64,000 nt of DNA from Alphaproteobacteria bacterium GWF2_58_20 (GCA_001768735.1 MEMB01000007.1:106386-170385); one strand, 5' to 3'. Numbered from the stretch's first letter, positions 23,156 through 38,774 are shown. The notes: a model not told the origin generated them from the letters alone. Made by a program: numbers and translations.

Positions 23156-23797
23156 ATGGCTTCGCCACCCCCGGCAGCACCTGCACACCCTGTTCATGTT
23201 GCGCGCAATCGCCGCGCCTTTCTTGTGGATGGATCCCAGAACATTCTTGCCGTGGCGATCATTGAAGCCCTGGTGATTGTGGCACTGGTTGTGGCCTGGG
23301 CGGTAACCATTGTCGTCCTCAAGCCGGAGGATCGCGTATTTGCGCTGACAGCGGACAAGCAGATGTTTGCCATGAGCCCCCTTTCTTCCCCCAACATGAC
23401 CAACAGCGCGCTGGTGGCCTGGGCCGCGCAGGCGATAACCGATGTCATGACAGTCAGCGTGGGAGATTATGACCAGCGGCAAATTGAGCATGAGAAGTAT
23501 TTCACGCCGGATGGCTGGAAGTCGTTTTCTGCCGCCCGCAAACTTGTGGGGGAGCGTGAGAATGTCCTCCGTAACCGGCAGGTGATTACGGCAGCCCCGC
23601 GTGCGGCGCCCAGCATTGTCGAGAAGGGGCTCCGGGGAGACAGCTATTTCTGGCGCGTGCAGGTTCCCATGGTCATTACCTACAACGTGGGGAACTCGCA
23701 GCAGGCCTCGGAGCAGGACTATGAAATTCTTGTGCTTCGGGTTTCCACAAGCGTCAACACCTTTGGGGTTGGGATTGATAGATGGCAGAAGATCTGA
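23156..23797 (+). CDS. dotI: DotI/IcmL (TraM)-family T4BSS inner-membrane protein, paralogue 1
   Basis: A single N-terminal TM segment (ILAVAIIEALVIVALVVAWAV) is followed by the IcmL-like periplasmic domain (..RVFALT.D.......PLS.P..T...L..WA.QA.......D........YFT..GW..F). The ATG at 23156 follows caggggag. Confidence 0.7.
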   Translation: MASPPPAAPAHPVHVARNRRAFLVDGSQNILAVAIIEALVIVALVVAWAVTIVVLKPEDRVFALTADKQMFAMSPLSSPNMTNSALVAWAAQAITDVMTVSVGDYDQRQIEHEKYFTPDGWKSFSAARKLVGERENVLRNRQVITAAPRAAPSIVEKGLRGDSYFWRVQVPMVITYNVGNSQQASEQDYEILVLRVSTSVNTFGVGIDRWQKI

Positions 23798-24477: not shown

Positions 24478-25577
24478 AAAAAATGCTGAAAAAGAAAAAA
24501 ATGTTGAAAAAAAACACGAACCGGAGGACATTCCGGCCCTTGAAAAAGGTGGAGGCCATGAGAGCATCAGGAATTTATGGGGCAGTTGCCCTGTTTGCCC
24601 TTTCGGGCATGTTGGCGGTGGGCCAGGCCCATGCGCAGGCGGAATCCATTCAGGTGGAAGCGCCGCAGGTTGAGGCAGCGCGTACGCAGAAGGTCTCTTT
24701 TCGCCAGGCTGCGCCCGTCGTGCAGGATTCAGATGTGATCGCGCCGGTATCCCAGGACATGTTCGAGGATGCCCTGGCCGATCTTGGTCAGGACAGGCGT
24801 GAAAAGGCTTATGATTCGGCGGTGGATGGCATCATGCCGCTCAGCCCGGAGCAGATCCGCACCTTGCGCACGCATCTTGACGAAAGCCAGGATGCGGCAC
24901 AGTCGCCCATGTCCCAGCCCAGGGCGGAGGTTCATGTGGAAAGCCTGTCGCTGGATCCCGGGGTTGCGCCGCCGGAAATGAAATTGGCCACGGGATACGT
25001 GACAACGCTGACCATGCTGGATTCGACGGGGCAGCCGTGGCCCATCAAGGATTATGGGGTTGGGGGCAATTTTGATGTGCCGCAGCCAGAGGATGGCAGC
25101 CATATCCTGCGCATTGTTCCGCTGACACAGCATGGGGCGGGGAACCTGTCCCTGCGTCTTGTCGGGCTGGCGACGCCCATTGCCTTCCGCCTGTCGTCTG
25201 GTGGAAATGTTGTTCATTACCGGTTTGATGCCAGGGTGCCGAAGCTGGGGCCCTCGGCGAAAGCTTCGCTGATTGACCGTGGTGTTTCTATGGCAGCCGG
25301 GGATGAGATCCTGATGGGGGTCCTGTCTGGCGTTGCGCCCAAAGGCTTTGAACGGATGGCGGTTTCGGGGGCCGATTCGCAGACCTCCGTATGGAAGAAT
25401 GGGGAAACCATGTATGTCCGCACGCCACTGACCCTGCTTTCGCCGGGGTGGAATGGAAGCGTGTCGTCTGCGGATGGAACCTGTGTTTATGAAATTGCCG
25501 CGTCGCCGGTGCTGCTGCTTTCAGACAGTGGTGCCATGGTGCGGGTCCGGATTGGAAGCAAAGAGGCCGTACAATGA
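24474..25577 (+). CDS. dotH: DotH/IcmK (TraN)-family T4BSS outer-membrane core protein
   Basis: Contains IMPLSPEQIRTLR...LATGYVTTLTMLDSTGQPWPIKDYGVGGNF......DGSHILRIVPL...GAGNLSLRLVGLATPIAFRL. The ATGA overlap with the upstream gene lies at 24474-24477. An alternative start at 24558 (MRASGIYG, the signal peptide) follows ggagg. Confidence 0.75.
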   Translation: MKKMLKKKKMLKKNTNRRTFRPLKKVEAMRASGIYGAVALFALSGMLAVGQAHAQAESIQVEAPQVEAARTQKVSFRQAAPVVQDSDVIAPVSQDMFEDALADLGQDRREKAYDSAVDGIMPLSPEQIRTLRTHLDESQDAAQSPMSQPRAEVHVESLSLDPGVAPPEMKLATGYVTTLTMLDSTGQPWPIKDYGVGGNFDVPQPEDGSHILRIVPLTQHGAGNLSLRLVGLATPIAFRLSSGGNVVHYRFDARVPKLGPSAKASLIDRGVSMAAGDEILMGVLSGVAPKGFERMAVSGADSQTSVWKNGETMYVRTPLTLLSPGWNGSVSSADGTCVYEIAASPVLLLSDSGAMVRVRIGSKEAVQ

Positions 25578-26863
25578 TTGATCAGATGCCAGAGATGGGA
25601 GGCCCGGAGGGCGGTCCCGAGGATTTTGAGGGAATCGCCCCCCCGGTGTCGCAGGGGTTTGTTGCCCGCCAGAATCTTTCCGAAGCCTGGAAAACGCGTC
25701 CGATGTTCCGGCTTTTGGTCATCGTGATGCCGGTTGTCGCTGTGGCGGCCATCGCCATGGGGATGTTCGGCGGCAATAACGATGTGTCTGCACCTTTGCC
25801 AACACAAGGCTTGCGGACATCGGATATTTCGCTCAATCCGGCCATTCCGACAACGCCTGAGGTGAAGCAATCGGTTGAGCAATATGACGCCCAGAAAATC
25901 GACCAGGCCCTGGCAACAGGAACCAGTGCGATTGCCACGCCGATGCGTTCAGACCAGATGGGAAATTCCTCAATCATGGTTGAGGATTCTGCCGCTGATC
26001 CGTTGGCGGAATGGCGCGGAGCTTCGGACATGTCGGTTGATTACATGACCCAGACCATGATTGAAGACCAGCGTTCTGCCCGTCCACAGCAGGTGGATAC
26101 CGAGGCGCAACAGCGCCGCCAGCAGGAAAATGACCGTTTGTCGCAGGCCATGCAGGCACAGATGAATGCTCTGCTGTCGGCCTGGGTGCCCAAGGGCGCC
26201 AAGGTGACAATGGTTGAGGACATGAAAAAGGCCGAGGATGCTGCGGCCGCTGCGGCAGCCGCACAGCAGCAGGCGTCTGCGGCTCCGGCCACCATTGATT
26301 CCAGCAAGCTCAACACGCTGGCCATGGCGGGGGATGTGGTTTATGCGCAGATCCTGACCCAAGCCAATTCCGATGTTCCGGGTCCTGTTCTTGCCCATAT
26401 CCTGACGGGAAAGTTCAAAGGCGCACGGGTTCTCGGCAATTTTGAATACACGGAGGAATACCTTGTGGTGCGCTTTACCACAGCCGTCCTTGGAAACCGG
26501 GAATACAAGATCGAGGCGGTGGCCCTGGATCCCGACACGACACTGACGGGTGTTGCGACGGATGTGGACAATCATTACTTCAAGCGGATTGTCCTGCCGG
26601 CCGCAGGCGCTTTCATCAGCGGGTTTGCCAGTGCACGCGCACAGACGACAACCACCAGCACCACGACATCTGGTGGCCAGGTTGTGCAGGATACAGCCAA
26701 AGCCACGGATGAAGAACAGGTTTACAAGGGAATTGAAAGTGCCGCCGACAAGGTCCAGGAAGTTCTGGACAAGGCGGGAGATGTGCGTCCCACGGTTGTC
26801 CTGGCGGCCAATACGCCGGTGGGCATCCTGTTCATGCAGTCTGTCCGGGAGATCATGAAATGA
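25574..26863 (+). CDS. dotG: DotG/IcmE (TraO)-family T4BSS core protein with a VirB10/TrbI-like C-terminal domain
   Basis: N-terminal TM segment FRLLVIVMPVVAVAAIAMGMF. C-terminal domain GDVVYAQILTQANSDVPGPVLAHILTGKFKGARVLGNF......LVVRFT.......EYKIEAVALDPDT...GVATDVDNHYF.R. It has ATGA overlaps on both sides. Confidence 0.8.
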   Translation: MIDQMPEMGGPEGGPEDFEGIAPPVSQGFVARQNLSEAWKTRPMFRLLVIVMPVVAVAAIAMGMFGGNNDVSAPLPTQGLRTSDISLNPAIPTTPEVKQSVEQYDAQKIDQALATGTSAIATPMRSDQMGNSSIMVEDSAADPLAEWRGASDMSVDYMTQTMIEDQRSARPQQVDTEAQQRRQQENDRLSQAMQAQMNALLSAWVPKGAKVTMVEDMKKAEDAAAAAAAAQQQASAAPATIDSSKLNTLAMAGDVVYAQILTQANSDVPGPVLAHILTGKFKGARVLGNFEYTEEYLVVRFTTAVLGNREYKIEAVALDPDTTLTGVATDVDNHYFKRIVLPAAGAFISGFASARAQTTTTSTTTSGGQVVQDTAKATDEEQVYKGIESAADKVQEVLDKAGDVRPTVVLAANTPVGILFMQSVREIMK

Positions 26864-27888
26864 TCAAGGAAACGGAATACACAGGGGGCGCGCCCCTTTC
26901 TGATGACATGGAAGACGATGGGATGGCCGGAGAGGCCCGTCCTGTGCTTTCAGATGAAACCCTTGATTCCCTGCCGGAAGAAGGCGAAGGGCTTCAGGTT
27001 CCGCCTCCGGATGAGGACGAGGAAGATTTTGGAACAGCGGAGCCGGTGGTGAAATCCAGCCGCATGCTGCCCCTTATGGTTGGGGGTGGTTTCCTGGTTT
27101 TTGCCATGGCAATGGCCTATTTCCAGTTCCGTCCCAAAGCGGTTGAGGAAACAGCTTTTGTCCCGATGGACATGTCGGCCGAGATGCCGATGGCCCTGCC
27201 GGAAGTGGTGGTGCCCGGATCCATGGAGAATGATTTCCCGAAACCGTTTGAGGTTTCGCAGATGGGGATGGGAGATGCCGGGATCCCGGCGATTTTGTCC
27301 GAGCCGCAGGGTCTGGACGCAAAAGCGCCTGTTGTGGCCATGGCCGCATTTCCTGCTCCGGTGGACAATGTAAAGCCCATGACCATTGATCAGACGCCTG
27401 TCAGGGAAGAGGAATCCCTGTCGGACGCCGTGGAAGGCAAGGTTGTTGTTCTGGAAGCGCAGATAAAGGCGCTTGAAGCCCGTCTGACAGAGATGTCCGC
27501 TTTGCAGGCGCAGATTCGCAATCTTGAAAGGAAGCTGATGGACATGTCGGTTTCTGAAACCGCACCCGCGCCCATGGTTTCGTCCATGCCGGTTGCCAAG
27601 GTTGTGGAAACGCCGAAGGCGGAACCTGCCAAGGCCATGCCCGTTGCAAAAGCGGAGCCTGCGGTAAAGCCCGTGTCCGCCCCTCCGGCAAAAAAAGTGG
27701 TGAAAGCCCCGAAATGGGAACTGCGCTCGGTTGCAGGGGATGCTGCCTGGGTTGGCGAGGCCGGGAAAGCGGATGTCAAGCGCGTAATCGTTGGTGACAC
27801 CCTTGAAGGTCTTGGGAAAATCACGGCCATTCACAAGGTGGACGGGGGTTGGGTGGTTGAAGGCAGCAGGGGAACTCTTAAACCGTAA
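26860..27888 (+). CDS. dotF: DotF/IcmG (TraP)-like T4BSS protein
   Basis: Acidic N-terminus, a single TM segment (MLPLMVGGGFLVFAMAMAYF) and a coiled-coil (LEAQIKALEARLTEMSALQAQIRNLERKL). The C-terminal beta-domain reads WELRSV.GDAAWV......DVKRVIVGDTLEGLGKITAI. It occupies the conserved position after dotG. Confidence 0.6.
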   Translation: MIKETEYTGGAPLSDDMEDDGMAGEARPVLSDETLDSLPEEGEGLQVPPPDEDEEDFGTAEPVVKSSRMLPLMVGGGFLVFAMAMAYFQFRPKAVEETAFVPMDMSAEMPMALPEVVVPGSMENDFPKPFEVSQMGMGDAGIPAILSEPQGLDAKAPVVAMAAFPAPVDNVKPMTIDQTPVREEESLSDAVEGKVVVLEAQIKALEARLTEMSALQAQIRNLERKLMDMSVSETAPAPMVSSMPVAKVVETPKAEPAKAMPVAKAEPAVKPVSAPPAKKVVKAPKWELRSVAGDAAWVGEAGKADVKRVIVGDTLEGLGKITAIHKVDGGWVVEGSRGTLKP

Positions 27889-28053
27889 GGGTTTCAGGAT
27901 GGAGGATCATCCAAAACGCCTTTTTTACTTGACGTTTTTGCTTTGGTTGCACATATTCGCGCCAAAGGAATGTTTCGCTTGGAAAGATTGAACCAGAATA
28001 TGCCGGGGAAGGGACATCATCACATTCTTGCGCAGCCTGAGATCGGGCTGCGC

Positions 28054-28956
28054 ATGTTTTCGTGCGCCTTTTTCCTGTTGGCTGTCCTTCTGGCGCTGCC
28101 ATCCCCGGCCTATGCGCTGGATGTTGGGGGCATCATTTCCAATGCTGGAAACCTTGCAATTTCTTCGCCTGTTCGTATTTTCATTCACGTTGTCGCTTAT
28201 GTCGTTGGGGCCTCCCTCATTTTTCTTGGCATGTTCAAGCTGGTCAAATATGTGGATGACCCGGCGCGCAACCATCCGGTTGAGCCATGGATGTACCTCA
28301 TTTCCGGTACGCTGCTCATTTTCTTTGTCTGGTTTGTTTACCAGCGGTTGGTTCCCACCCTGTTTTCGGGGGATCTTAAAGGGGTTGGTTCTGGCGGCGG
28401 CATGGCCGGTGGATCGGGCGAGGGGCTGGATGCCCGTTTCATCAGTTTTGTGTCGAATGTTGATGGTCCCCTGCGGGCGGCCATTACAGCCATTTGCTGG
28501 CTGATTGGCGTGATCATGGCGTTTAATGGCGTGGTGCGCCTCACCAAGGTTTCGCAGAAAGGGCCCAAGGGCCCTGCGGGTGCTGGTACGCTGATGACCT
28601 TCATTGTGGCTGCCATCATGCTCAGCCTCGGCAACATGATGGAAGCCGTGAGCTTCAGCGTTCTCGGCGGCGTGGATTTCAGCACCAGTTATGAGCTGGT
28701 CGCCATTCCCAAGGCGCTTGGAAAGCATGGCGAAGCGGCGAAGAATGCCTTCCAGGCCGCGCTGGTTTTTGTCCAGCTCATCGGCTGGATTGCTTTTGCG
28801 CGCGGATGGCTGCTCATCCGCGACATTGTGGACGGAACATCGAAATCCTCGATGTTGTCGGGCTTTACCCATGTCATTGGGGGTGCGCTGGCGGCCAATA
28901 TTGGCAGCGTGCTCAAGGCCCTTCAGGCAACATTGGGCATCACCATCATCTCGTAA
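28054..28956 (+). CDS. DotE/IcmC (TraQ)-like polytopic inner-membrane protein, enlarged (about 300 aa)
   Basis: Signal-like N-terminus MFSCAFFLLAVLLALPSPAYA. Three successive TM-hairpin modules each resemble IcmD. It occupies the position between dotF and icmD. The start is uncertain (in-frame starts at 27943 and 28000). Confidence 0.5.
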   Translation: MFSCAFFLLAVLLALPSPAYALDVGGIISNAGNLAISSPVRIFIHVVAYVVGASLIFLGMFKLVKYVDDPARNHPVEPWMYLISGTLLIFFVWFVYQRLVPTLFSGDLKGVGSGGGMAGGSGEGLDARFISFVSNVDGPLRAAITAICWLIGVIMAFNGVVRLTKVSQKGPKGPAGAGTLMTFIVAAIMLSLGNMMEAVSFSVLGGVDFSTSYELVAIPKALGKHGEAAKNAFQAALVFVQLIGWIAFARGWLLIRDIVDGTSKSSMLSGFTHVIGGALAANIGSVLKALQATLGITIIS

Positions 28957-28994
28957 AAAAGATGATGTTTTTTATCTCAAGGTAACCAGAATTA

Positions 28995-29375
28995 ATGGAG
29001 TTGAACATGAACAAGCTGAATGAAAAGTTTTACGGCATCCTGGCGGCCGGTTCCGCCACGGTTTTCACCAGCAAGTCGGCTTCCGCCGCCACGATTGGTG
29101 ACATCATTGAAAGCCTGACGGACAGCTTCCGTCCGGCGGCCACCCTCATTTCCGTGGTCTGCTATCTGGGCGGCGCCGCGCTGGTGGCGCAGGGCCTGCT
29201 GAAGCTGAAGAACCACATTGATCAGCCGGAGAAGGCGCCGCTGAAGGATGCTCTTGGCCGCCTCATCGTGGGTGCGGGCCTCATTGCCATCCCCTTCATC
29301 GTCGAGGCTGTGCTGGAAAGCATGGGCGGTACTCAGGGCGGTAACGTCACCGGTGGCGATGGTTTCGGCCTTTAA
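28995..29375 (+). CDS. icmD: IcmD/DotP (TraR)-like small T4BSS membrane protein
   Basis: Signal/TM segment ...GILAAGSATVFTSKSASA, then ATLISVVCYLGGAALVAQGLLKLKNH...LIVGAGLIAIPFIV. Size and position are as expected. Confidence 0.65.
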   Translation: MELNMNKLNEKFYGILAAGSATVFTSKSASAATIGDIIESLTDSFRPAATLISVVCYLGGAALVAQGLLKLKNHIDQPEKAPLKDALGRLIVGAGLIAIPFIVEAVLESMGGTQGGNVTGGDGFGL

Positions 29376-29394
29376 TCAAAGAAGCTGATACCTG

Positions 29395-30093
29395 ATGTCT
29401 CTCTTTCCGGTTGTTTTGGGTGTGCGCCGTGAGGTGAAGGGAAAGCCCGGTGAAGCTTTCCCCGCCTCTGGCCTTGACGCCTCCAGTCCCGAGCTGCGTG
29501 CCCGGGTGCTGGAGCGTGATGGAAACACATGCCAGTTTTGCGGATTTACGTCGAAAAAATACCAGAATCTGGTATTCCGCAATGGCAATGCCCTGGATAC
29601 CCGGATGGAAAATCTCGCGACGGCCTGCATTTTCTGTCACCAGTGTTTCTTTCTGGAAACGGTGGCGGGCATGCGGTCGGGCGTTCTTGTCTGGTTGCCG
29701 GAAATGGATGCGGCGGCGCTTCACCACGTTTGCCGCGCCATTTATATTGCCCGGATCAGCCAGGGGCCGGTGGCCGATGCCGCCCGCATTGCCCTTGATG
29801 CGCTGATTTCGCGGCGTGATGAGGCGCGCAAGCGCCTTGGCACGGACGATCCGGCCATTCTGGCTGGTGTCCTGCAGGATTTCCTGGAGGACAAGGATTA
29901 TGCGATGCGCAGTCGCAAGCTGGACGGTATCCGGCTTTTGCCGCTGGATCGGCGCATCATCCGTGACGGGGACATGGAGTTCAACCAGTTTCCCCAAATT
30001 CTTGCTTACTGGCGTTCCAAGGATGGGCCATTTGGCGGCGTGCCGCCGGCCGGATGGGAACAGCTTTTTGATCAGGTTTCATCCCTGGCCTGA
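29395..30093 (+). CDS. icmJ: IcmJ/DotN (TraT)-like zinc-binding T4BSS protein
   Basis: Four-Cys motif RVLERDGNTCQFCGF......LVFRNGNALDTRMENLATACIFCHQC. It lies immediately upstream of dotO, as in Dot/Icm and IncI loci. Confidence 0.65.
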   Translation: MSLFPVVLGVRREVKGKPGEAFPASGLDASSPELRARVLERDGNTCQFCGFTSKKYQNLVFRNGNALDTRMENLATACIFCHQCFFLETVAGMRSGVLVWLPEMDAAALHHVCRAIYIARISQGPVADAARIALDALISRRDEARKRLGTDDPAILAGVLQDFLEDKDYAMRSRKLDGIRLLPLDRRIIRDGDMEFNQFPQILAYWRSKDGPFGGVPPAGWEQLFDQVSSLA

Positions 30094-30153
30094 TTGCTGG
30101 GGAGAAGGCCCGCATGTGCGGTAGGTTGAAGGAAAAAGAGGGAGAGGATTTTT

Positions 30154-33138
30154 ATGGCCAGGTTGATTGATGATATCCTCGGGTCCTTTTTTGCTGCCAT
30201 GCATCAGCCGGTCGAATCCTATGTCCGTCTTGAAACGGCGGATGACAGCCAGACCCTTGTTGCGGGAGATGGCTCGCTCCTGACCATTCTCAAGATCCAT
30301 GGGGCCCGCCAGATCATTGGCGACGAGGAATATCGCTTTATTGTGGAGCAGGCTTCGGTGAAGCTGGGGGCACGGTTTGACCGCCCCGGCCATGCCATGC
30401 AGGTGTATTTCAGCCGCGATCCTGAACGCATGGTCAGGGAAATCGGCGACATGGTGCGGCCCAGCGAACTGACGTCGCGGGCCATTGGGCTTGATCTTGC
30501 CGACCTCTTCGAGGAGCGCCGTCGCAACCTGTCGCGCTACCTCGCGTGGGAGGATATTTATTTCGTCCTGTGGACCCGCCCCGTGGCCATGACGGATGTG
30601 GAACGCAAGAATGAGGAACAGAAGCGCCGTGCCCGTCCATGGGTGGTGGCGCCCACCGCCCAGTACCCCTTTGCGGCGCTTGAATCGCTGCGGAGCCGGC
30701 ACGGCAGTTATGTCTCCTCCATTGCGAGCTCTCTTGAGGAAATCGGTATCCAGTCCAGTGTTGTTGAAGTGCATGAGGCCCTTTCTGCCGTCCGCACCAG
30801 CATCTATCCCAATCTGGCCAATGATCGCTGGCGTCCCTGCCTGCCGGGCGATCCGATACCTGTGCGCGCGCTACAGAGCAGAAGTGACCTGTCCGATGTG
30901 CTGTGGCCTGCCCTGCGCCGCCAGTTGTGTGTGGGGGATGCCGAGGTCAAGACCCAGAATTCCGTGCGAATCGGCAACCAGATCTGGTCGGGCGTGGACA
31001 TGACTCTGGCTCCCATGGAACCCAGCCCGTTTCCGGTGTTTCTGGGCCGGTTGGTGGAAGCCGGAATTCCGTTCCGCATTTCCTTCCTGATTGAGGCGGG
31101 GGGCGCTTCGGCTCTCGGGTTCAAGAAGGCTGTTGCCTCCATTTTGGGCTTCAGCAATGACGTGAACAAGCAGATCAAGGATTCGCTGGAAGGGATTGAA
31201 GCCCTGGCCCGTGATGAAGCCGTGGTCAAGTTGCGGATTTCCATGGCGACATGGGCGCCTCCGGACCAGCCAAAACTTCTGGAGGAACGCACATCCATGC
31301 TGGTGCAGGCCTTTGAAGGCTGGGGCTATTGCCAGGTATCACAGATTGCGGGCGACCCGCTGGATTGCGTGATGTCTTCGGCGCTCGGCATTGCCTGTGC
31401 CTCCACGGCACCTGCGGCCATTGCGCCTTTTTACGATGTTCTCAAGCTGTTGCCGTGGCAGCGGGCATCCAGCCCGTTTGACAAGGGATCGGTTCTCCTG
31501 CGCTCGCCGGACGGACGTGTGTGGCCCTATCAAACCGGGACGAATCTTACCACCACCTGGTTCGACCTGATTTTCGCCCAGCCGGGTGCAGGCAAGTCGG
31601 TGCTGATGAATGCGCTGAACCTTGGCACCTGCCTTACGCCAGGGCTTTCCCAGTTGCCTTATGTGGCCATTATCGACATTGGTCCGTCATCTGCGGGGCT
31701 TGTGTCCCTTCTCAAGGATGCCATGCCGCCGGAACGCCGCCATGAAGTGGCGCATTACCGTCTGCGCATGACGCCGGAATATGCCATCAACCCGTTTGAT
31801 ACCCAGCTGGGGTCGCGCTATCCACTGCCCGATGAGCGTTCCTATCTTGTGGAACTCCTCACCCTGTTGTGTACGCCGCCAGGACAGCCGGTGCCTTATG
31901 ATGGCATTCCCCAGCTCTGCGGGCTGGTGGTGGATGAAATGTTCCGCTGGCGGGATGATGTGACCGCAAATGCCGAGGCGCATCCCTACCTGCAGCGGAT
32001 TGATGAAGAAGTGGACAAGGCCATTTCCGACCGCAATATTCACCTGCCGACGGAAGCGACATGGTGGGATGTGGTGGATGGCCTGTTTGAGGCCGGGGAT
32101 ACGCATGCGGCCATGCTGGCGCAGCGTTATGCGGTTCCGACATTGACCGATGCCGTGACGGCTTCGCGTCGGCCGCAGATCCGGGCGCTTCTGGAAGAGA
32201 CCAAGATCAGCGCCGGTGCGGAAAGCGTCATTGGCGCGTTTGAGCGCATGATTGCCTCCAGCATTCGTGAGTTTGCGCTGCTGGCCTCCGTCACCAAGTT
32301 TGATATTGGTGATGCCCGCGTGTGTGCGCTCGACCTTGGCGAAGTGGCTCCGCAGGGGGATGAAACATCGGATCGCCAGACGGCCATCCTCTACATGCTG
32401 GCGCGCCATGCGCTGGTGCGGCATTGGTGGCTGGGCGAAGATGCCCTCAAAAACCTCAATCCGAAATACCGCGAACATCATGAACTCCGCCTGCGATCAA
32501 TCCGCGAATCGCCCAAGCGCCTGTGTTATGATGAGTTCCATCGCACCAGCAAATCGCGCTCGGTGCGCGCCCAGGTGGTGCGTGACGTGCGCGAAGGCCG
32601 CAAGTGGGGCGTGCAAATTGTTCTTGCCTCGCAGCTGCTGGAAGATTTTGACGACAACATGATTGACCTTGCCACAGGCGTGTGGATTCTGGGTGCGGCC
32701 ATTTCCGAGCGTTCGGTGGATCAGGCCGCCAAGCGGTTTGGCCTGTCCGACACGGCACGCTGGTACATGCGTTATCGCCTTACCGGGCCGCGTTCCAGCG
32801 GGGCGCCTGCGCTCATGGTGCTGGGCACCAATGAGGGGCGTTATGAGCAGTTCCTCATCAACACCCTTGGCCCCATCGAGCTGTGGGCGCTTTCGACATC
32901 CTCCGAGGATGTTTCCATCCGGACACGCGTTTACCATCGTTTGGGCGCCAAGCTGGGGCGTGAAATCCTGGCCACCAACTATCCGGGGGGCAGTGCGCGC
33001 AGTGAAATTCGCCGTCGCGTCACCCAGCTTTCTGAAAAGGGTGAAGTGGAAAGCGCCGCCACGTCGGTGGTGATCGAGGATATTGTGAACGAGCTGGTGC
33101 AAGCGGCGGTGGCCGCGCAGAGATTGCAGTTGTCCTGA
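30154..33138 (+). CDS. dotO: DotO/IcmB (TraU) T4BSS VirB4-class ATPase
   Basis: 994 aa. Walker A in IFAQPGAGKSVLMNAL. Walker B-like region in LCYDEFHRTS...GRKWGVQIVLASQ. Size and position are typical of DotO. Confidence 0.85.
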   Translation: MARLIDDILGSFFAAMHQPVESYVRLETADDSQTLVAGDGSLLTILKIHGARQIIGDEEYRFIVEQASVKLGARFDRPGHAMQVYFSRDPERMVREIGDMVRPSELTSRAIGLDLADLFEERRRNLSRYLAWEDIYFVLWTRPVAMTDVERKNEEQKRRARPWVVAPTAQYPFAALESLRSRHGSYVSSIASSLEEIGIQSSVVEVHEALSAVRTSIYPNLANDRWRPCLPGDPIPVRALQSRSDLSDVLWPALRRQLCVGDAEVKTQNSVRIGNQIWSGVDMTLAPMEPSPFPVFLGRLVEAGIPFRISFLIEAGGASALGFKKAVASILGFSNDVNKQIKDSLEGIEALARDEAVVKLRISMATWAPPDQPKLLEERTSMLVQAFEGWGYCQVSQIAGDPLDCVMSSALGIACASTAPAAIAPFYDVLKLLPWQRASSPFDKGSVLLRSPDGRVWPYQTGTNLTTTWFDLIFAQPGAGKSVLMNALNLGTCLTPGLSQLPYVAIIDIGPSSAGLVSLLKDAMPPERRHEVAHYRLRMTPEYAINPFDTQLGSRYPLPDERSYLVELLTLLCTPPGQPVPYDGIPQLCGLVVDEMFRWRDDVTANAEAHPYLQRIDEEVDKAISDRNIHLPTEATWWDVVDGLFEAGDTHAAMLAQRYAVPTLTDAVTASRRPQIRALLEETKISAGAESVIGAFERMIASSIREFALLASVTKFDIGDARVCALDLGEVAPQGDETSDRQTAILYMLARHALVRHWWLGEDALKNLNPKYREHHELRLRSIRESPKRLCYDEFHRTSKSRSVRAQVVRDVREGRKWGVQIVLASQLLEDFDDNMIDLATGVWILGAAISERSVDQAAKRFGLSDTARWYMRYRLTGPRSSGAPALMVLGTNEGRYEQFLINTLGPIELWALSTSSEDVSIRTRVYHRLGAKLGREILATNYPGGSARSEIRRRVTQLSEKGEVESAATSVVIEDIVNELVQAAVAAQRLQLS

Positions 33139-33161
33139 TTTGCAAGGTTCCGGAAACCATG

Positions 33162-33195
33162 AAAAAAGCCCCTTCTTCACGGAAGGGGCTTTTTG
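33162..33195. terminator. Rho-independent terminator between dotO (+) and the ankyrin gene (-)
   Basis: An A6 run, then hairpin gccccttc-ttcacg-gaaggggc, then a T5 run. Confidence 0.75.
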
Positions 33196-33320
33196 CTGGA
33201 AGGGCTTATGTGGGGATCAGTCTTGTTCGATTTTTTTGGCACCATCGGGGGCCGCGGCACGGCTGTCATCCAACAGGGGGAATAGGTTGTGGTTCCAGGG
33301 ATATTTCCCGGCTTTCCAAG

Positions 33321-34331
33321 TCAGGGAGCGGGTTTTGGCGCGGGCAGGGCGGGAGTCGGATGTTTACCATGGCGCGGCAGGCGTACAGGCAAGCCGGCGG
33401 CTTTCTGATTCATGGCGTAGGCCAGGGATTGTTGGAGTCTGGTTGCACGCGTCCGGGTTTTCGGGTGGTTTTGGGCGTGTTTGTGCAGTTTTTTCTGGGC
33501 CAGGTACACGGTTTTTTTCCACGTCTCATCCGTTGTGGTGGCGGCAACCTGTTCCAGGATGATGTTGCAAATATCCAAGCGTGCTTCTGTCGGTTTCTGC
33601 ATATAGTGACGCATGGCAAGATGGAAGGTGCCTTCATTGGTGGCGGCACCATGCCCGGTCAGAAACGCGGCATGTTCGGCATCTCCATCCCGGATGGTGT
33701 AATTCAGGAGGGGAATGTCGCCAACCAATGTGTTGTCGCAAATGTTTGGGTTCAAACCGTTTTCAATCAGGATGCGGGCGATTTTCTTGTTTTTAATAAT
33801 GACTTTTGTGTTCTCTGACGTGCGATAAAAATTATATGTCGATTGCACGCCTTCTGAATGGATCAAACGTTCGATTTCAAAGCTGTCTTCAGCTTGAATG
33901 GCGGAGGCAAGCTTGGTTTGCTGGTTGCACAGTCTGCCCAGGAAGGCGAGATTCGTGATGCAGGTGATGAGCAGAACCCATGGCGCTGTTGAGAGGGTGG
34001 CAAGGCTTGCGGCCCCCATGGCCCAAAATCCGCACCAGGCCAAGTTGCGGGTCTTGGTCAGGTAGGCGTGGCCCTTCCATGTTGTCCGCGCCGTGTCCTG
34101 GGCCTGTGTGCGCTTGATATCTTCCTGCTGGATGAAACTTTGCAAGACCTGTGCCGCATGGGTTTTTTCATCGGTTTCGGAATCCACATTGTAAAGCCAT
34201 GCCTGTTTTTTCAGGGTTTGGCCGTGCATCTCGAAGCTTTTGCGCGCGACAATTTCCTGGTCTGGCAGGAGATCTTCCTCATATGGTTCAGCCGGAATAT
34301 GTGACGGATGCCTGAATTGGGTTTCTGTCAT
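33321..34331 (-). CDS. Membrane-hairpin ankyrin-repeat protein, paralogue 1 (candidate T4BSS effector)
   Basis: Two adjacent TM helices (LAWCGFWAMGAASLATL / PWVLLITCITNLAFLG) are followed by ANK-like repeats (ILIENGLNPN..D......PLLNYTIRDGDAEHAAFLTGHGAATN). The C-terminal tail reads LPVRLPRHGKHPTPALPAPKPAP. The internal stretch is visibly A/T-rich. Confidence 0.6.
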   Translation of the reverse strand: MTETQFRHPSHIPAEPYEEDLLPDQEIVARKSFEMHGQTLKKQAWLYNVDSETDEKTHAAQVLQSFIQQEDIKRTQAQDTARTTWKGHAYLTKTRNLAWCGFWAMGAASLATLSTAPWVLLITCITNLAFLGRLCNQQTKLASAIQAEDSFEIERLIHSEGVQSTYNFYRTSENTKVIIKNKKIARILIENGLNPNICDNTLVGDIPLLNYTIRDGDAEHAAFLTGHGAATNEGTFHLAMRHYMQKPTEARLDICNIILEQVAATTTDETWKKTVYLAQKKLHKHAQNHPKTRTRATRLQQSLAYAMNQKAAGLPVRLPRHGKHPTPALPAPKPAP

Positions 34332-34348
34332 GGGAATCCCTTATCTTC

Positions 34349-35353
34349 TTAAGGTTGTTTTGGCTGTGGGGCTGGCAGCTGGCGCGGCAGCCGCACAGGC
34401 AGTTTTGCCGCCCGCTGGCTCATGGCCTGCATGAGCCGTTTCCGGATATCCGGCAGGAAGGGATGGTCCTTCATGTCCGCCAGCGTTCTCTCCATGAGAC
34501 GCATTTCCCGCCGCCATCCTTCATGGGATGCCTGGCTGCCGGCCTGTTCCAGCAGCATGCCAAGAATGTCGAAAAAGGGTTTGCGGGCTGCATCGGGATT
34601 CTTGCTCTTCTGCAGTTCGGTGACAAGCTGGCCGAGATCCGATCCGGTGGTGCTGAAAAGGCCGACCGTGGCCCCATGGTGCAGCAGCATGGCCACGCGG
34701 TCGCTATCCAGATCCTTCATCGCTGTTTGGAGGGGATTGAGGCGATGTCTGAAAACACTGCGGACGTTTGGGTTGAAACCATTCTCCAGCAGGAGTTTTG
34801 CGATTTTGTTGTCGGTCTCCTTGAAGGCGCCCGGCATGGGGTTTTCCACGGCGACCACCGGGCCAAACGCGCCATGTACGGGACAATTCGGGTTGACGCC
34901 TTCGGCCAGCAGGCGGCGGATTTCAAACTCCTCCCGGTTTTCCACGGCTTCGGCCAGCAAAGATTCCTGGCAGAGATGCTTGAAGAACAGGGCCGCGTTG
35001 GCGATGGCCGCCACGCCGGCCAGCCATGGCATGACCGGCAACATCGCAATGCCAGCCCCCCCGACGGCAAAAAAACCGGCCCAGGCCAATCTGCGGACGC
35101 GGCGGGCGCGGGTTTTATCGCCCCACCCCTGTTCCAGCCGTGTTTCCTCCTGCCGCAGGATGTTGTCCATGACCTGCCGGGTGCTGGTGGCCTCGTCCGC
35201 ATCGGGGGAGACAGCATACATATCCGGGTTCTCCCGGATGAATTGCTCCATGAAGCGCAGGCTTTTGCGTGCCGCCAGCTCCTTGTGGGAAGGCATCTCG
35301 TCTTCGGCTTGCTCTTGCGGGAGACATGGCGGTTGTTTGAATTCCGTGGTCAT
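34349..35353 (-). CDS. Membrane-hairpin ankyrin-repeat protein, paralogue 2 (candidate T4BSS effector)
   Basis: Same architecture: TM helices LAWAGFFAVGGAGIAML / PWLAGVAAIANAALFF and ANK-like LLLENGFNPN......LNPLQTAMKDLDSDRVAMLLHHGATV. The tail reads KLPVRLPRQLPAPQPKQP. The start was set at MTTEFKQPP, parallel to MTETQFRHPS of paralogue 1. This gives an ATGA overlap with the upstream gene. Confidence 0.6.
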   Translation of the reverse strand: MTTEFKQPPCLPQEQAEDEMPSHKELAARKSLRFMEQFIRENPDMYAVSPDADEATSTRQVMDNILRQEETRLEQGWGDKTRARRVRRLAWAGFFAVGGAGIAMLPVMPWLAGVAAIANAALFFKHLCQESLLAEAVENREEFEIRRLLAEGVNPNCPVHGAFGPVVAVENPMPGAFKETDNKIAKLLLENGFNPNVRSVFRHRLNPLQTAMKDLDSDRVAMLLHHGATVGLFSTTGSDLGQLVTELQKSKNPDAARKPFFDILGMLLEQAGSQASHEGWRREMRLMERTLADMKDHPFLPDIRKRLMQAMSQRAAKLPVRLPRQLPAPQPKQP

Positions 35354-35946
35354 GGCATGTCTGTCCTGGAAAAAGGTGAGGGCTTGGGGGCGGTTTTGCG
35401 GAGCTTCTGGATCCATGGTGCGGGTTCGAGGCCAAGCCTTTTTTCGCGTTGTCTGGCTTCGTTGAGGAGGCGGAAAGCCCTTTCATCCCACGAGGCCTTG
35501 TTGAAAAGCAGGTTTTCACCAAGTTCTTCATAAAGGCCGGAAAAATCGGCGTTCGGATCCTGGCTTGTGAAGGCGTTATTGACATCGATGATGACGGGAT
35601 TCCTGGCATGAAAGAAGTTGGCCCAGATTTTCGGCTGGACAGGGAAAGGGCAATGGGCAGGGTCGATCACCAAGGGCACAATGCGCCCGTCGGGCCATGT
35701 CGTCATCAGGCACGGGGCGACATGGAGGTTGAATTCCATGGTTTCATTCCCCTCATGTTTTTTGATCAGCCAAGCTTGCCGCGTGTCGATGCCCTGCTCC
35801 ACCATTTGTATGCTTTTTACATGGGCGCGACAGTCGCAGCAGGTGTTTGTCACGCCCAGGGCCAGCTCTTCGCTGCGGGCGAAATACTCGAACCATGCAA
35901 CGGCTTCCGCGGGTGTCACGGTTTTTCTGGGAGTGGATGCCTGCAT
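35350..35946 (-). CDS. Protein-glutaminase-like (papain/transglutaminase-fold Cys-His-Asp) protein, paralogue 1; candidate glutamine deamidase effector
   Basis: CCDCRAH ... LHVAPCL ... LVIDPA has the spacing and context of the protein-glutamine glutaminase triad. My recollection of the Chryseobacterium enzyme is DGCYARAH ... YHVAILV ... IIDPS. The tail contains TAPKPSP. Confidence 0.55.
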   Translation of the reverse strand: MQASTPRKTVTPAEAVAWFEYFARSEELALGVTNTCCDCRAHVKSIQMVEQGIDTRQAWLIKKHEGNETMEFNLHVAPCLMTTWPDGRIVPLVIDPAHCPFPVQPKIWANFFHARNPVIIDVNNAFTSQDPNADFSGLYEELGENLLFNKASWDERAFRLLNEARQREKRLGLEPAPWIQKLRKTAPKPSPFSRTDMP

Positions 35947-36521
35947 TATGGGGTTCCGGTCATGTTTGGCATAGGCACAAGGGCCAGGGACTTTTCCTTG
36001 CGGATCCGCGTGACCCAGCGGCGGGGTTTCAGGTGGTGTATCATAGAGAACGCATAGGCATGGGATAAGGTGTCGTTGGTCTGCTGGTCACGCATCGCGG
36101 CAGATCTTTTGTATTTTTCATTCCAATAATATCTGTCTTCCTGAGGGTTTGCGCAGTCCGTGATGAGGAACTGGGTGGCCTTCATGCCTTTTGTCCAGAC
36201 CTTGGGGGAGACTGGACGGGGATAAAAGACAGGGTCGATGACCACCGGTTTGGCGGTTCCATTTTTGCCGACAACCATCAGGCAGGGGGCGACATGGAAG
36301 ATGACATCCATTTTTTCCGCTTGCCGGGGCGTTTCCATATCCGAAGCCACCCAGATTTTCCGGGTGTCAAGCCCATGGGCCTGCATGACAGAACAGATGA
36401 GGTGGGCGCGGGCGAAGCAGCCGTTCCAATTAAAAGCTGGCGCCATATCCTTGCGCAGGGCGAAGTATTCAAACCACTGCTGCGCTTCTTCTGGCGTGAC
36501 GGTTTTGTGTTTTTCGGACAT
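35946..36521 (-). CDS. Protein-glutaminase-like Cys-His-Asp protein, paralogue 2
   Basis: Contains NGCFARAHLICSVMQAHGLD ... FHVAPCLMV ... VVIDPVFYPRPVSPKVW. Its stop TAA shares one base with the ATG of paralogue 1. Confidence 0.6.
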   Translation of the reverse strand: MSEKHKTVTPEEAQQWFEYFALRKDMAPAFNWNGCFARAHLICSVMQAHGLDTRKIWVASDMETPRQAEKMDVIFHVAPCLMVVGKNGTAKPVVIDPVFYPRPVSPKVWTKGMKATQFLITDCANPQEDRYYWNEKYKRSAAMRDQQTNDTLSHAYAFSMIHHLKPRRWVTRIRKEKSLALVPMPNMTGTP

Positions 36522-36617
36522 GTTTCTCCCTCGTATCTATCATGCCGAAGATAAGGCAAGCGGGGGCAATGCAGAATTGCTGATTGTGCAACCCAGCCCT
36601 GCGCGGCGCGCATGGGT

Positions 36618-38774
36618 TCAGGTTTTCAGGCGGTGGAGGGCGGTTTCCAGTGTGGAAATGGCATATGCCTTGTCGGTTTCGGAGATTTTCTCCAGATCGA
36701 CGGTAATGGCGAAATTGTCGCGCTGTTCATGGATGGTGGTTTGCGACATGTCGATCTCGCCATAAAAGCCGATGACGCGATACGTTTGCACGGGCTGGGC
36801 AAATCCCTTGACGCTGATGGGGTCCTGCGCTTCGCCCAGCACAAGATCCTTCACCAGGGCATAGGTTTCATACGAGAGGACAATATCGCCCGGCTGGGCG
36901 GTGGATTGCAGGCGGGAGGCCAAATTCACTTCGCTGCCGATGAGCGTGTAATCCATTCGCTCCTCGCTGCCAAAGTTCCCCACCGTGCAGTAGCCGGTAT
37001 TGATGCCCACGCGCATGTGGAACGGACGTTCCATGCCTTTGTCGCGCCATTCCATGCGCATTTCCGCCAGGCGTTTTTGCATGGCGATGGCGGTATGGAC
37101 GGCGGCGATGGCATCCTCGCGCGCGCCGCGGCTTTCAGGGTCGCCGTAAAACAGCATGATGGCATCGCCCATGTACTTGTCGATGGTCGCGCCATGCAGC
37201 AGGGCGATCTTGGTCATTTCCTGGAAATATGTGTTGATGATGGTGGAAAGCTCTTCGGCTTCCATGCTGTCCGAGGAGGCCGTGAAGCCAACAATGTCGC
37301 AGAACAGGATGGAGAGTTTCTTGCGCTGGGCACCTACCTTGACATCGCGGTTTCCGCTGAAAATTGAGTTGTAGATCTGTGGCGACAGGTATTTGGAAAT
37401 CTTGTCGGACAGGTTTTCAAGATACCGGTTCTTTTCCTGCAGCAGGACATTGGCGGCCCGCAGTTCGCCCGTCCGTTCGCGTACCTGGAATTCCAGCGTG
37501 TGGTTGAGATGCTCAAGGTCCACCGACATGTGTTCCATTTTTTCATGGGCCTTGTTCACCTTGAGGCCGATGACCGCCGCATGGGAGAAGACAAAGATGA
37601 TGAAGCCGGCATGCGCCATGTCCACGGTCTGCACAATGTGGGCGTAAAAAAGGATGTCATTGATGGTGGTAACGGCGACGAGTGCAAGGCCGCCGGCAAT
37701 CCAGAAGGCGCTGTCACGCCGGTGCAGGCATGCACGCACCAGGGTTGAGACGGAAAACAGGATGGTGCCGAACACCACGGCCATGGCCGGGTCGCGCAGG
37801 CGGGTGTAAATGTGCGCCGGGAAAAGCAGCATGACGGTGGTGGCAAAAATGCCAAAGGCAAAAAGGCCTGTGCGGACCCGTGGTTCAATTTCATCCGGGA
37901 ACAGCCAGCCCAGCAGCGCATAATAAAAGCCAACACCCAGGAAGGGGGCAAGATATTCCAGCGGCAGGTACCATTCGGCCGAAATGTCCGGCAGGAAGTC
38001 GAGGACAAGCTTGCTGGTGCCAAGGGTGCGCAGGCTGATGAGCAGAATGAGCAGGCCAAGATAGAGGTAGCCTTTTTCCTTGGGGCGATGCAGGAAGAGA
38101 AGGAGCTGGTAGAAGGCGATGATGAGACCGGCCCCGATGGTCAGGGCGTTGAGGAGGCGGACGTTGAGGGCCCGCTTGGCCAGAAGATGGGATCGGCCCA
38201 GCCGGATGGCGCGGGCAATGCCCCCTTCATAGTGATAGTGGTTGGATACCTGCATGACGATATCGAGAGAGCTTTCTCCCGTTGGCAGGTTGACCACCCG
38301 GGTTTGGGAAACCGGAACTTCGGTTGCCCGGCTGTCTCCCACCATGCCGATATAGTCAAGGTTGACGCCATTGACCCATAGGTTGAAGGCATAGTTGAGT
38401 TCGCCAATTTCAAGGGCCAGCGCTGGTGCGCCCTGCGGCAGGACAATCTTCAGGTGGTAGGTGGCCATGCCCGTGCCGGGCAGGTCGCGTCCGCAAGCAA
38501 ACTGGCCGTTCCAGATAGCAGGAACCTGGATGAAATCCATGCATGCGGACGTGCCCTTTTCCAGGTCTTCGGGCGTGAGTTTCTGGTCCCAGTAAAAGCC
38601 CCAGTTGCCAAAAAGGTCCACCACGGGGGTTTGGGTGAAATCCCATGTCGAAAGGTCTATGACGCCTTTTTCAGCGCGCGGCATCCGGAGGGTCTTGGCC
38701 GCCGCGGCCTCTTTTCCCGCAAGGGAGAGGCTGAGCAGGAAAACGGCAAGAAGGGTGAAAATCCGCATGCGCAT
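36618..38774 (-). CDS. 7TM-receptor (7TMR-DISM type) class III adenylate/guanylate cyclase
   Basis: The N-terminal signal peptide and extracytoplasmic domain are followed by about 7 TM helices and then a coiled-coil. The cyclase domain reads KKLSILFCDIVGFTA........L....N.YF.EMT.I...HGATIDKYMGDAIMLFYG ... RVGINTGYCTVGNFGS..R.DYT.IG..VNLASRL. Confidence 0.85.
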   Translation of the reverse strand: MRMRIFTLLAVFLLSLSLAGKEAAAAKTLRMPRAEKGVIDLSTWDFTQTPVVDLFGNWGFYWDQKLTPEDLEKGTSACMDFIQVPAIWNGQFACGRDLPGTGMATYHLKIVLPQGAPALALEIGELNYAFNLWVNGVNLDYIGMVGDSRATEVPVSQTRVVNLPTGESSLDIVMQVSNHYHYEGGIARAIRLGRSHLLAKRALNVRLLNALTIGAGLIIAFYQLLLFLHRPKEKGYLYLGLLILLISLRTLGTSKLVLDFLPDISAEWYLPLEYLAPFLGVGFYYALLGWLFPDEIEPRVRTGLFAFGIFATTVMLLFPAHIYTRLRDPAMAVVFGTILFSVSTLVRACLHRRDSAFWIAGGLALVAVTTINDILFYAHIVQTVDMAHAGFIIFVFSHAAVIGLKVNKAHEKMEHMSVDLEHLNHTLEFQVRERTGELRAANVLLQEKNRYLENLSDKISKYLSPQIYNSIFSGNRDVKVGAQRKKLSILFCDIVGFTASSDSMEAEELSTIINTYFQEMTKIALLHGATIDKYMGDAIMLFYGDPESRGAREDAIAAVHTAIAMQKRLAEMRMEWRDKGMERPFHMRVGINTGYCTVGNFGSEERMDYTLIGSEVNLASRLQSTAQPGDIVLSYETYALVKDLVLGEAQDPISVKGFAQPVQTYRVIGFYGEIDMSQTTIHEQRDNFAITVDLEKISETDKAYAISTLETALHRLKT

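Follow-up and report, generated by a model that had tools for sequence, protein, structure and literature searches.

Why would a bacterium encode, beside the machinery of a secretion system of type IVB (T4BSS), two copies of an ankyrin-repeat (ANK) protein with a hydrophobic hairpin, directly behind two copies of an enzyme? The question is raised by a stretch of 64,000 nucleotides from Alphaproteobacteria bacterium GWF2_58_20 (GCA_001768735.1, MEMB01000007.1:106386-170385), which at its full length we call the window, and in which the two ANK genes, named here ank1 and ank2, occupy positions 33,321 to 35,353 behind the enzyme genes dea1 and dea2. An initial annotation, made from the DNA, had proposed duplicated hairpin-ANK proteins co-transcribed with a deamidase-like pair and aimed at eukaryotes. 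Our computational analysis indicates that ank1 and ank2 are probably secreted cargo, not ordinary housekeeping genes, and we tentatively favour, with confidence falling somewhat short of even, the view that they encode T4BSS cargo in the form of membrane-inserting ANK partners of the co-expressed enzymes.

Architecture of the ank1 and ank2 proteins

The two proteins align end to end with 32% identity (E=1e-46), bearing out their proposed paralogy, and the duplication is still traceable in the DNA as direct repeats ~1.0 kb apart. Both have four parts (Table 1). The first, an acidic N-terminal region of ~85 residues, is conserved in both proteins and contains in each the acidic peptides quoted in the initial annotation; it opens with an MTxxFxxPPxxPQ motif common to ank2, ank1 and both copies in L004, a related contig described below. 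The second is a bilobed hydrophobic hairpin, with 36-residue Kyte-Doolittle means of 1.70 in ank2 and 1.43 in ank1, as against ≤1.00 in 19 other ANK open reading frames (ORFs) from related loci. Its lobes are split by an uncharged turn of ≤6 residues with an invariant central P-W, basic flanks surround it in ank2 (KTRARRVRR... and ...FKH), and helices 80-102 and 109-138 lie over the hydrophobic stretch in the AlphaFold2 (AF2) model of ank2, the mean predicted local distance difference test score (pLDDT) of which is only 58.7. From the positive-inside rule alone, both hairpin ends are predicted to be cytoplasmic (N-in/C-in) in the producing cell. The third part consists of the ANK repeats and the fourth is a basic, proline-rich tail of the APKP type described initially: the two proteins end in ...LPAPQPKQP and ...LPAPKPAP, and their last 20 residues have a net charge of +4 and contain no Glu or Asp. 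The centre of ank1 is indeed A/T-rich, as noticed earlier, with a GC content of 0.39 over 150 nt (33725-33874, the first ANK repeats) against ~0.58 elsewhere in the region. At this patch ank2 has a 10-residue insertion relative to ank1.

Are these repeats really ankyrins? The Pfam model Ank_2 stays below its cut-off of 27.3 bits (16.7 for ank2, 13.3 for ank1), but three other approaches agree on the assignment. A hidden Markov model (HMM) of ank1 and ank2, used for an exhaustive search of 1.84 billion representative proteins at E≤1e-3, gave 1068 matches; the best 150 of the 1068 all fall at profile columns ~110-300, nearly all in multiple stretches, and nine of nine sampled matches were strong ANK proteins. 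With the same profile, 14 of 15 matches among PDB sequences were ankyrins or designed ANK proteins (best 4rlv, E=3e-8), and jackhmmer started from a consensus ANK repeat reached ank2 at 4e-19 and ank1 at 2e-5. The ank2 model, made from a two-sequence alignment, is all-helical with paired short helices after the hydrophobic stretch, and in Foldseek it retrieves mostly designed ankyrin-repeat proteins (DARPins) or DARPin fusions at the top, with poor scores (E ~6e-3, TM-score 0.25-0.39). From these profile matches we conclude that both proteins appear to carry three to four degenerate ANK repeats. The HMM search found no full-length relative among the 1.84 billion representatives beyond the two window proteins, and a word-indexed homologue search with ank2 returned only ank2 itself; taken together, N-terminal region, hairpin and helical C-terminal part amount to an orphan architecture. 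A role in anti-phage defence was considered and dropped, as PADLOC gave only weak matches of the ANK region to one candidate model.

The coupled operon and its enzymes

The order on the minus strand is dea1, dea2, ank2, ank1, head to tail. A TAATG at 35946 joins the dea2 start to the dea1 stop, the ATGA at 35350-35353 (already recognised in the initial annotation) joins the ank2 start to the dea2 stop, and the ank1 ATG is preceded by a 17-nt spacer with an AAGGGA Shine-Dalgarno-like site. A terminator scan found none inside the four genes, which form a tightly, translationally coupled operon and are predicted to be co-transcribed, as had been proposed. We place the ank2 start at the ATG at 35353, not at 35416, on the basis of the N-terminal alignment (MTTEF / MTETQF / MTTEL / MTEMF); 35353 was also picked by three independent gene calls (a JGI metagenome, the metagenome-assembled genome GCA_003485165.1 and a Logan assembly). 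The overlapping plus-strand ORFs at 34355-35533 and 33159-33818 were dismissed as high-GC antisense artefacts, the minus-strand reading being preferred because of the paralogy, the ANK matches, the synteny with L004 and the three gene calls. Downstream, between the convergent ank1 and dotO genes, lies a hairpin terminator that is probably bidirectional. Immediately upstream of dea1, a 718-aa 7TMR-DISM adenylate/guanylate cyclase is encoded on the same strand (36618-38774). Read-through transcription from the cyclase gene into the operon is possible, since our scan of the spacer between the two detected no terminator-like site; no minus-strand promoter-like site was seen there either. Repeats flanking the operon were looked for and not found, so nothing hints at a mobile cassette.

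The dea1 and dea2 proteins are 34% identical to each other, and their description as deamidase-like can be made more specific. They match Pfam PF18626 with 64.7 bits (E=1e-17) and 31.9 bits (1.6e-7), respectively, against a cut-off of 25. C35, H76 and D96 (dea1 numbering) are invariant in six of six sequences, and the surrounding motifs are in register with those of the protein-glutaminases 2zk9, 3a56 and 8z3i. The AF2 model of dea1 (pLDDT 73) has protein-glutaminase for all of its top six Foldseek matches in the PDB. Judged by these alignments, dea1 and dea2 are protein-glutaminase-family (PF18626) enzymes with an intact Cys-His-Asp triad. Only 34-38 residues, all hydrophilic in character, stand ahead of the catalytic Cys, and no signal peptide, pro-peptide or hydrophobic N-terminal window is visible in either protein. 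Proteins of the PF18626 family have been noted before as adjoining Dot/Icm systems (PMC10318531).

The neighbouring secretion system and its host

The operon converges on the last gene of a T4BSS gene cluster, which encodes an ATPase of the dotO/icmB family. We base its identity on gene order and on full-length matches to plasmid IcmB/TraU at 40-45% identity; it has no PDB or Pfam match. Ahead of it the cluster contains, in the canonical Dot/Icm order, two DotI/IcmL-family genes, DotH/IcmK, DotG/IcmE, two unassigned genes (one of them TraQ-like), an IcmD-like gene and IcmJ/DotN, the latter above its NCBIfam cut-off. A second cluster lies further to the left in the window (Table 1), and the operon thus adjoins a real, chromosomal Dot/Icm-type T4BSS, as had been presumed. 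To its right the genes are all of the housekeeping kind: adenylate cyclase, pntAB, ubiquinone genes, an aminoacyl-tRNA synthetase and rsmB.

Which organism is this? Among GTDB species representatives the dotO ATPase has 142 relatives, the best 80 of which are 59-69% identical to it. About one third of these best 80 are labelled Micavibrio or Pseudobdellovibrionaceae/Bdellovibrionales (where NCBI files Micavibrio), and the other labels are generic alphaproteobacterial, Rhodospirillales or Pseudomonadota. The related loci keep the gene order upstream of dotO, and from this conservation together with the labels we assign the window, by sequence relationship, to a Micavibrio-like alphaproteobacterium in which this T4BSS is lineage-wide. 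The cultured members of Micavibrio are obligate epibiotic predators of bacteria (PMC3189940), and the eukaryote-targeting frame that the initial annotation had borrowed from Legionella, Coxiella and Rickettsiales is therefore not borne out. The 2011 genome paper on M. aeruginosavorus ARL-13 reported no type III or IV system (PMC3189940), while a 2022 survey listed relaxase-free Dot/Icm-type systems in seven marine Micavibrionales (PMC9418006). We found no paper on the function of the Dot/Icm-type systems of Micavibrionales.

Distribution of the enzyme-ANK module

The module is distributed very differently from the secretion system. In the related loci, taken as the best 80 of the 142 dotO relatives with 10 kb on each side, no dea or hairpin-ANK homologue was found (0 of 80). 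Because of this absence, and because the four genes lie where the T4BSS cluster borders on housekeeping genes, we regard the module as accessory. Outside the window's own species it was found twice, in L004 and L005. L004, a 2.6-kb Logan contig, encodes in order a dea1-like protein (47% identical to its window counterpart), a dea2-like protein (57%), a 324-aa ANK protein that corresponds to ank1 (23-24%) and the start of an ank2-like protein (64%). The 324-aa protein has the same N-terminal motif and a hydrophobic stretch of hairpin size, and hhalign relates it to the pair with a probability of 92% over 275 columns. By this comparison the enzymes-then-ANK arrangement has been kept as a unit between the window and L004, so that the order enzyme-enzyme-ANK-ANK recurs in a second organism. 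The stoichiometric pairing that the initial annotation had read into the 2+2 arrangement agrees with the 2:2 gene counts, but these are counts in two loci only. The two findings that it had named as speaking against its proposal did not materialise: profile methods do detect ANK repeats, and no orthologues came to light that lacked both the enzymes and any type IV secretion system.

L005, from a related species, keeps the adjacency of cyclase and dea1, and its contig ends after the dea1 tail. The L005 cyclase shows 95% identity at the protein and 86% at the DNA level, and the alignment of L005 1-2200 with window 35968-38138 holds ~86% DNA identity through the cyclase and the first ~110 nt of dea1. 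In the core of dea1 the nucleotide identity falls to 40-57% (43% for the core protein) and then climbs back to 82% in the codons for the C-terminal tail. Since identity is lost in the core and regained at the tail, the dea1 core evolves fast while both ends are held constant, and this mosaic suggests either diversifying selection or cassette exchange in the core.

Further searches extended this distribution very little. Those with dea1 and with the enzyme alignment yielded only the L004 and L005 orthologues and one distant relative, a scan of genome contigs with the enzyme alignment gave 300 pattern matches and no real one, and two degenerate DNA patterns for KTVTxxEAxxWF(E/D)(Y/H)FA found nothing in metagenome contigs, a collection evidently without the JGI sample that carries the locus. 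The distant relative (L086 205-897, 230 aa, PF18626 E=4e-13) comes from another organism, where it lies directly upstream of rsmH-ftsL-ftsI-murE and has no ANK partner; the dcw cluster of the window's genome itself lies just left of the T4BSS region (L088). On plasmids, tblastn with dea1 produced one weak match in an unrelated context, which was rejected. This is a 370-aa Sinorhizobium protein, an unannotated ORF on plasmid pEMPC1 of Sinorhizobium sp. BG8 (L090 7311-8423), with a Trp-rich hydrophobic segment IWPWWRRLLDWIWRWPIWPWWWF before a protein-glutaminase-like domain; on inspection, an adjoining ORF resembles a TonB-dependent receptor.

ANK arrays beside dotO and basic C-terminal tails

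What do the relatives encode in place of this module? ORFs of the related loci were first picked solely by a Pro/Lys-rich C-terminus, and the majority proved to encode ANK-repeat proteins or DUF6782 putative metallopeptidases. Three to five ANK genes lie downstream of dotO in each of five of the 80 loci (L043, L049, L060, L081 and L084), most of these genes being convergent to dotO; they begin 128-1916 bp past the dotO stop and none is upstream of dotO. The array ANK proteins have no hairpin (36-residue hydropathy ≤1.00), and no dea gene was seen near the arrays in the stretches examined of these five loci. Of 19 array ANK ORFs, 14 end in a basic tail that has Pro among its last six residues, as against 26 of 1028 other ORFs, examples being ...LKLKPSKPGP, ...IGLKGP, ...FSLKP and ...LPAPPKPAS. 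The five islands downstream of dotO may, on this pattern, be effector islands with a lineage-specific C-terminal export signal.

Tails of similar character recur in the window. Nine proteins in four paralogous families that flank both T4BSS clusters (two HNH-like, three RNase J/beta-CASP-like, the two enzymes and the two ANK proteins) have on average 5.0 Pro in their last 20 residues, all with net-positive tails, whereas the other 40 window genes average 1.1 Pro. An earlier and stricter tail motif had failed on seven of the nine, and the simpler counts of Pro and charge were used instead.

The HNH-like and RNase J-like genes lie between the two clusters. The former comprise 9793-10344, which matches the Pfam HNH model, and 10535-11029, assigned as its paralogue by N-terminal resemblance only; the latter are tandem RNase J/beta-CASP metallo-beta-lactamase paralogues (11148-12896, 12947-14479 and 14483-16120). 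Their products end in ...PKPPAPKPPQPRYAPKDDPALL, ...LPTWAPKP and ...MEPVGPK, all Pro-rich and net-positive, and can be listed as candidate nuclease cargo.

Are the ANK proteins cargo?

How, then, might ank1 and ank2 work? If they are cargo, the hairpin would enter the inner membrane of the producing cell with both ends in the cytoplasm, and the C-terminal tail would be offered to the secretion machinery. The protein would then be extracted and delivered into a target cell, as has been proposed for transmembrane effectors of Legionella, where the hairpin would re-insert into a membrane and the ANK domain would bind the co-delivered cognate enzyme, dea1 going with ank1 and dea2 with ank2. As a result, protein deamidation would be localised or restrained at the recipient membrane in the manner of a metaeffector, and the target cell could be either bacterial prey or a eukaryote. 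We favour cargo because position, ANK content and tail type are common to the relatives' arrays, where there is no enzyme to protect against, and the predicted properties of the hairpin, which match those reported for Legionella transmembrane T4BSS effectors, support it further. Only those ANK proteins that are linked to the enzymes have a hairpin, which suggests that binding of the cognate enzyme falls to the ANK domain, and attachment of the pair to a membrane of the recipient cell to the hairpin. The anchoring or regulation of the enzymes by the ANK proteins, as proposed in the initial annotation, is plausible, and much of the same evidence would also suit immunity. The view of ank1 and ank2 as a lineage-restricted pair belonging to the accessory cargo of the T4BSS is likewise a provisional judgement, made at slightly less than even confidence.

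Several observations weigh against cargo. The tail statistics are post hoc and the orthologues in them are not independent, so that p-values overstate the case, although the recurrence of such tails is striking all the same. When the ank pair is aligned by hhalign to the relatives' dotO-convergent ANK family, only the ANK core aligns; orthology is not claimed, since the alignment is confined to this generic core, and by these comparisons the array genes are positional and architectural analogues of ank1 and ank2, not orthologues. The tail of the ank proteins does not have the Glu-rich (E-block-like) feature of Legionella signals and, if it is a signal, would be of a different type. The lobes of the hairpin are of moderate hydrophobicity (1.16-1.73, as compared with window inner-membrane proteins, which peak as high as 2.1-2.6), and the ank2 model, with its pLDDT of 58.7, is poor. 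Some parts of the T4BSS, among them the coupling protein DotL, did not turn up in the stretches examined. Finally, co-transcription, fast evolution and equal copy number are traits that one would equally expect of an immunity protein.

This last possibility deserves most attention among the alternatives, even if we consider it unlikely. Here dea1 and dea2 would be toxins delivered into bacterial prey or competitors, and ank1 and ank2 would reside in the producer's inner membrane and neutralise the cognate toxin before export or after attack by a sibling cell. Co-transcription, translational coupling and the 2:2 copy number all fit, and the adjacency expected of an immunity gene is seen in the dea2/ank2 ATGA overlap and the lack of an internal terminator, although the genes follow the order enzyme-enzyme-ANK-ANK and do not alternate as toxin and immunity genes would. 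With neither a signal peptide nor a pro-peptide visible in the enzymes, the producer would have an active glutaminase in its own cytoplasm; then again, neutralising a cytosolic enzyme needs no membrane hairpin. An arms race would predict the 43% identity of the dea1 core where the neighbouring cyclase is 95% identical, and divergence between the window and L004 looks matched within the pairs, being large for dea1 with ank1 and smaller for dea2 with ank2. The lineage preys on bacteria (PMC3189940), and one T4BSS that kills bacteria is known to encode, within its own cluster, a cytosolic effector-immunity pair that is co-transcribed (PMC9519443). In contrast, immunity is a poorer explanation of why the ANK proteins are large and four-part with the same kind of tail as the enzymes, and of why ANK arrays with such tails stand beside dotO in relatives in which the stretches examined contain no dea homologue.

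The two remaining explanations are less likely. As adaptors or chaperones, the ANK proteins would be neither exported nor inhibitory and would tether the enzymes at the inner membrane by the T4BSS for hand-over. This we consider improbable: coupled expression, the predicted cytoplasm-facing ANK domain and the conserved N-terminus and tail of dea1, as possible docking sites, are in line with it, but it leaves the cargo-type tail on the ANK proteins and the enzyme-less ANK arrays flanking dotO elsewhere unaccounted for, and the known Dot/Icm adaptors IcmS, IcmW and LvgA are small soluble proteins (PMC7251119). Equally doubtful is an endogenous module with no T4BSS link, in which deamidation would be scaffolded at the cell's own membrane, maybe with the upstream cyclase, and dotO proximity would be coincidental, for although the terminator-free gap, the cyclase-dea1 adjacency kept in L005 and the distant PF18626 relative by cell-division genes with no ANK partner agree with it, the module is absent from the 80 related loci, very rare in public data and fast-evolving, it is specifically downstream of dotO that ANK genes recur in the lineage, and an association of PF18626 with T4BSS has been reported (PMC10318531).

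The reading of ank1 and ank2 as cargo can be widened into a proposal that we regard as unlikely in its full extent. The Micavibrio-like T4BSS would be a weapon of predation or host manipulation, its substrates marked by a new basic, Pro-containing C-terminal signal and its arsenal made up of ANK proteins, protein-glutaminases and nucleases, with the hairpin-ANK proteins co-delivered and inserting into a membrane of the attacked cell to position or gate the glutaminases. Relatives of Micavibrio are studied as 'living antibiotics', and the way in which epibiotic predators kill and drain their prey is poorly understood. To this problem the locus contributes testable candidate cargo for a Micavibrio-type T4BSS, namely the enzymes, their hairpin-ANK partners and a candidate C-terminal export tag that is common to the ANK arrays of related genomes. 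If cargo is the right reading, ANK-repeat and transmembrane T4BSS effectors would extend beyond intracellular pathogens of eukaryotes, the protein-glutaminase family would acquire a function in nature besides its application as a food enzyme, and a sequence tag would become available for mining the remaining arsenal. With a bacterial target, the hairpin-ANK proteins would represent ANK-repeat transmembrane effectors directed against a prokaryote; with a eukaryotic one, part of a 'bacterial predator' order would really be eukaryote-associated.

Feature coordinates and other genes of the region

Table 1. Positions of the features discussed; those of the ANK islands refer to their own loci, all others to the window
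Feature	Position	Strand	Description
dea1	35946-36521	minus	191 aa, protein-glutaminase-family enzyme by alignment, operon gene 1
dea2	35350-35946	minus	198 aa, dea1 paralogue
ank2	34349-35353	minus	334 aa, hairpin-ANK protein
ank1	33321-34331	minus	336 aa, ank2 paralogue, final gene of the operon
dea1 catalytic triad	Cys35 36417-36419; His76 36294-36296; Asp96 36234-36236	minus	from alignment to 2zk9/3a56/8z3i
ank2 acidic N-terminal region	35099-35353	minus	residues 1-85, from alignments
ank2 bilobed hydrophobic hairpin	34982-35089	minus	residues 89-124, LAWAGFFAVGGAGIAMLPVMPWLAGVAAIANAALFF, from hydropathy
ank1 hydrophobic hairpin	33936-34043	minus	residues 97-132, LAWCGFWAMGAASLATLSTAPWVLLITCITNLAFLG, from hydropathy
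ank2 ANK region	34604-34969	minus	residues ~129-250, 3-4 degenerate repeats
ank1 ANK region	33552-33920	minus	includes the low-GC patch 33725-33874
ank2 basic Pro-rich C-terminal tail	34352-34417	minus	QRAAKLPVRLPRQLPAPQPKQP
ank1 basic Pro-rich tail	33324-33404	minus	KAAGLPVRLPRHGKHPTPALPAPKPAP
Hairpin terminator	33162-33189		between convergent ank1 and dotO; GCCCCTTC-cgtgaa-GAAGGGGC, then T6 on the minus strand; by reading of the sequence, the plus-strand version from the scan
Spacer upstream of dea1	36522-36617	minus	96 nt, between the 7TMR-DISM cyclase gene and dea1
dotO/icmB-family ATPase	30154-33138	plus	994 aa, last gene of its cluster, convergent to the operon
T4BSS cluster	23087-33138	plus	dotJ/I-H-G-(F)-(E)-icmD-dotN-dotO
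Second T4BSS cluster	5658-9612		DotD, DotC, DotB, IcmT, TcpQ-like
ANK islands of related loci	L043 13118-19711; L049 13059-18705; L060 13084-20233; L081 13126-20380; L084 13265-22350		ANK genes plus DUF6782 putative metallopeptidases

Some further genes of the region deserve mention. Between the dcw cluster and DotD-DotC-DotB, the window carries part of a large Lcl_C-domain protein (23-2128; the full gene, L088 5162-7834, encodes 890 aa); Lcl_C is the C-terminal domain of the Legionella collagen-like protein. Three genes between flgK and dotJ (19209-20639 on the plus strand, 20947-22170 and 22193-22858 on the minus strand) encode proteins with signal-peptide-like N-termini and no Pfam match, and tblastn found no counterpart of them in the 80 related loci.

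Comparison with known systems

One close analogy is with the ANK-containing Dot/Icm effectors of Legionella and Coxiella; in L. pneumophila, ANK repeats occur in 24 of 368 effector models (PMC11696984). As in those, ANK repeats are combined with other modules in proteins that are lineage-specific and fast-evolving and are encoded in a genome with a Dot/Icm-type system. However, the ank pair is related to them only in the ANK core, its tail is basic and Pro-rich instead of Glu-rich, the host is Micavibrio-like and no known intracellular parasite of eukaryotes, and the translocation of the ank proteins is putative.

For transmembrane T4BSS effectors of Legionella, export in two steps via an inner-membrane intermediate has been proposed, which requires periplasmic loops to be short and a C-terminal signal to face the cytoplasm (PMC11602083). 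The ank proteins resemble such effectors, for example SidF (PMC11602083), in their hydrophobic segments, very short loop and predicted cytoplasmic C-terminus, which would leave the tail available as a signal; the turn of ≤6 residues lies well within the loop length of <30 residues given for them (PMC11602083). They differ in that their topology is predicted from the distribution of charges only, no IcmS/IcmW was seen in the window, and there is no homology.

Among the effector/metaeffector pairs of Legionella, MavC and MvcA are tandem deamidase-fold paralogues with a neighbouring inhibitor, Lpg2149. An ANK protein, AnkJ, inhibits the effector Ceg14 (PMC13439196). The likeness to our operon consists in an enzyme effector with a regulator encoded alongside, the regulator being an ANK protein in one case and the enzymes a tandem pair in the other. 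In the window, by contrast, the enzymes belong to PF18626, and the putative regulators are duplicated too and have a membrane hairpin.

The kib T4BSS of Pseudomonas putida IsoF kills bacteria and has an effector-immunity pair, and co-transfer of the immunity protein was raised by its authors (PMC9519443). It shares with the window a co-transcribed cytosolic two-protein pair beside T4BSS machinery. There is no homology, the kib pair consists of one toxin and one immunity protein with neither ANK repeats nor a hairpin, and the kib island was recently acquired horizontally, unlike the lineage-wide T4BSS of the window.

The Inc proteins of Chlamydiae are secreted by the type III route and insert into the inclusion membrane. 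The Inc-like character claimed in the initial annotation survives as architecture: in both cases a bilobed hydrophobic domain of ~40 residues puts both ends on the same side of the membrane (for the ank proteins, by prediction). It does not extend to membership, as the context is a Micavibrio-like alphaproteobacterial T4BSS in another lineage and no type III secretion gene was seen among the window genes scanned; the ank proteins would be at most Inc-like in their working.

The enzymes can be set beside the protein-glutaminase of Chryseobacterium proteolyticum (2zk9, 3a56), with which they share the Pfam family and the aligned Cys-His-Asp residues. That enzyme has a pro-form of ~305 residues with the catalytic domain from about residue 150 (as matched in 3a54/3a56), whereas dea1 and dea2 have no long pro-region, a helical C-terminal half of their own and a conserved tail.

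ANK effectors, transmembrane effectors and enzyme/regulator pairs are thus already known kinds. What is new in this locus is an orphan family that joins a short-turn hairpin to ANK repeats, its duplication in step with that of a protein-glutaminase-like enzyme, and a basic, Pro-rich tail unlike the known Dot/Icm signals, in a lineage that preys on bacteria.

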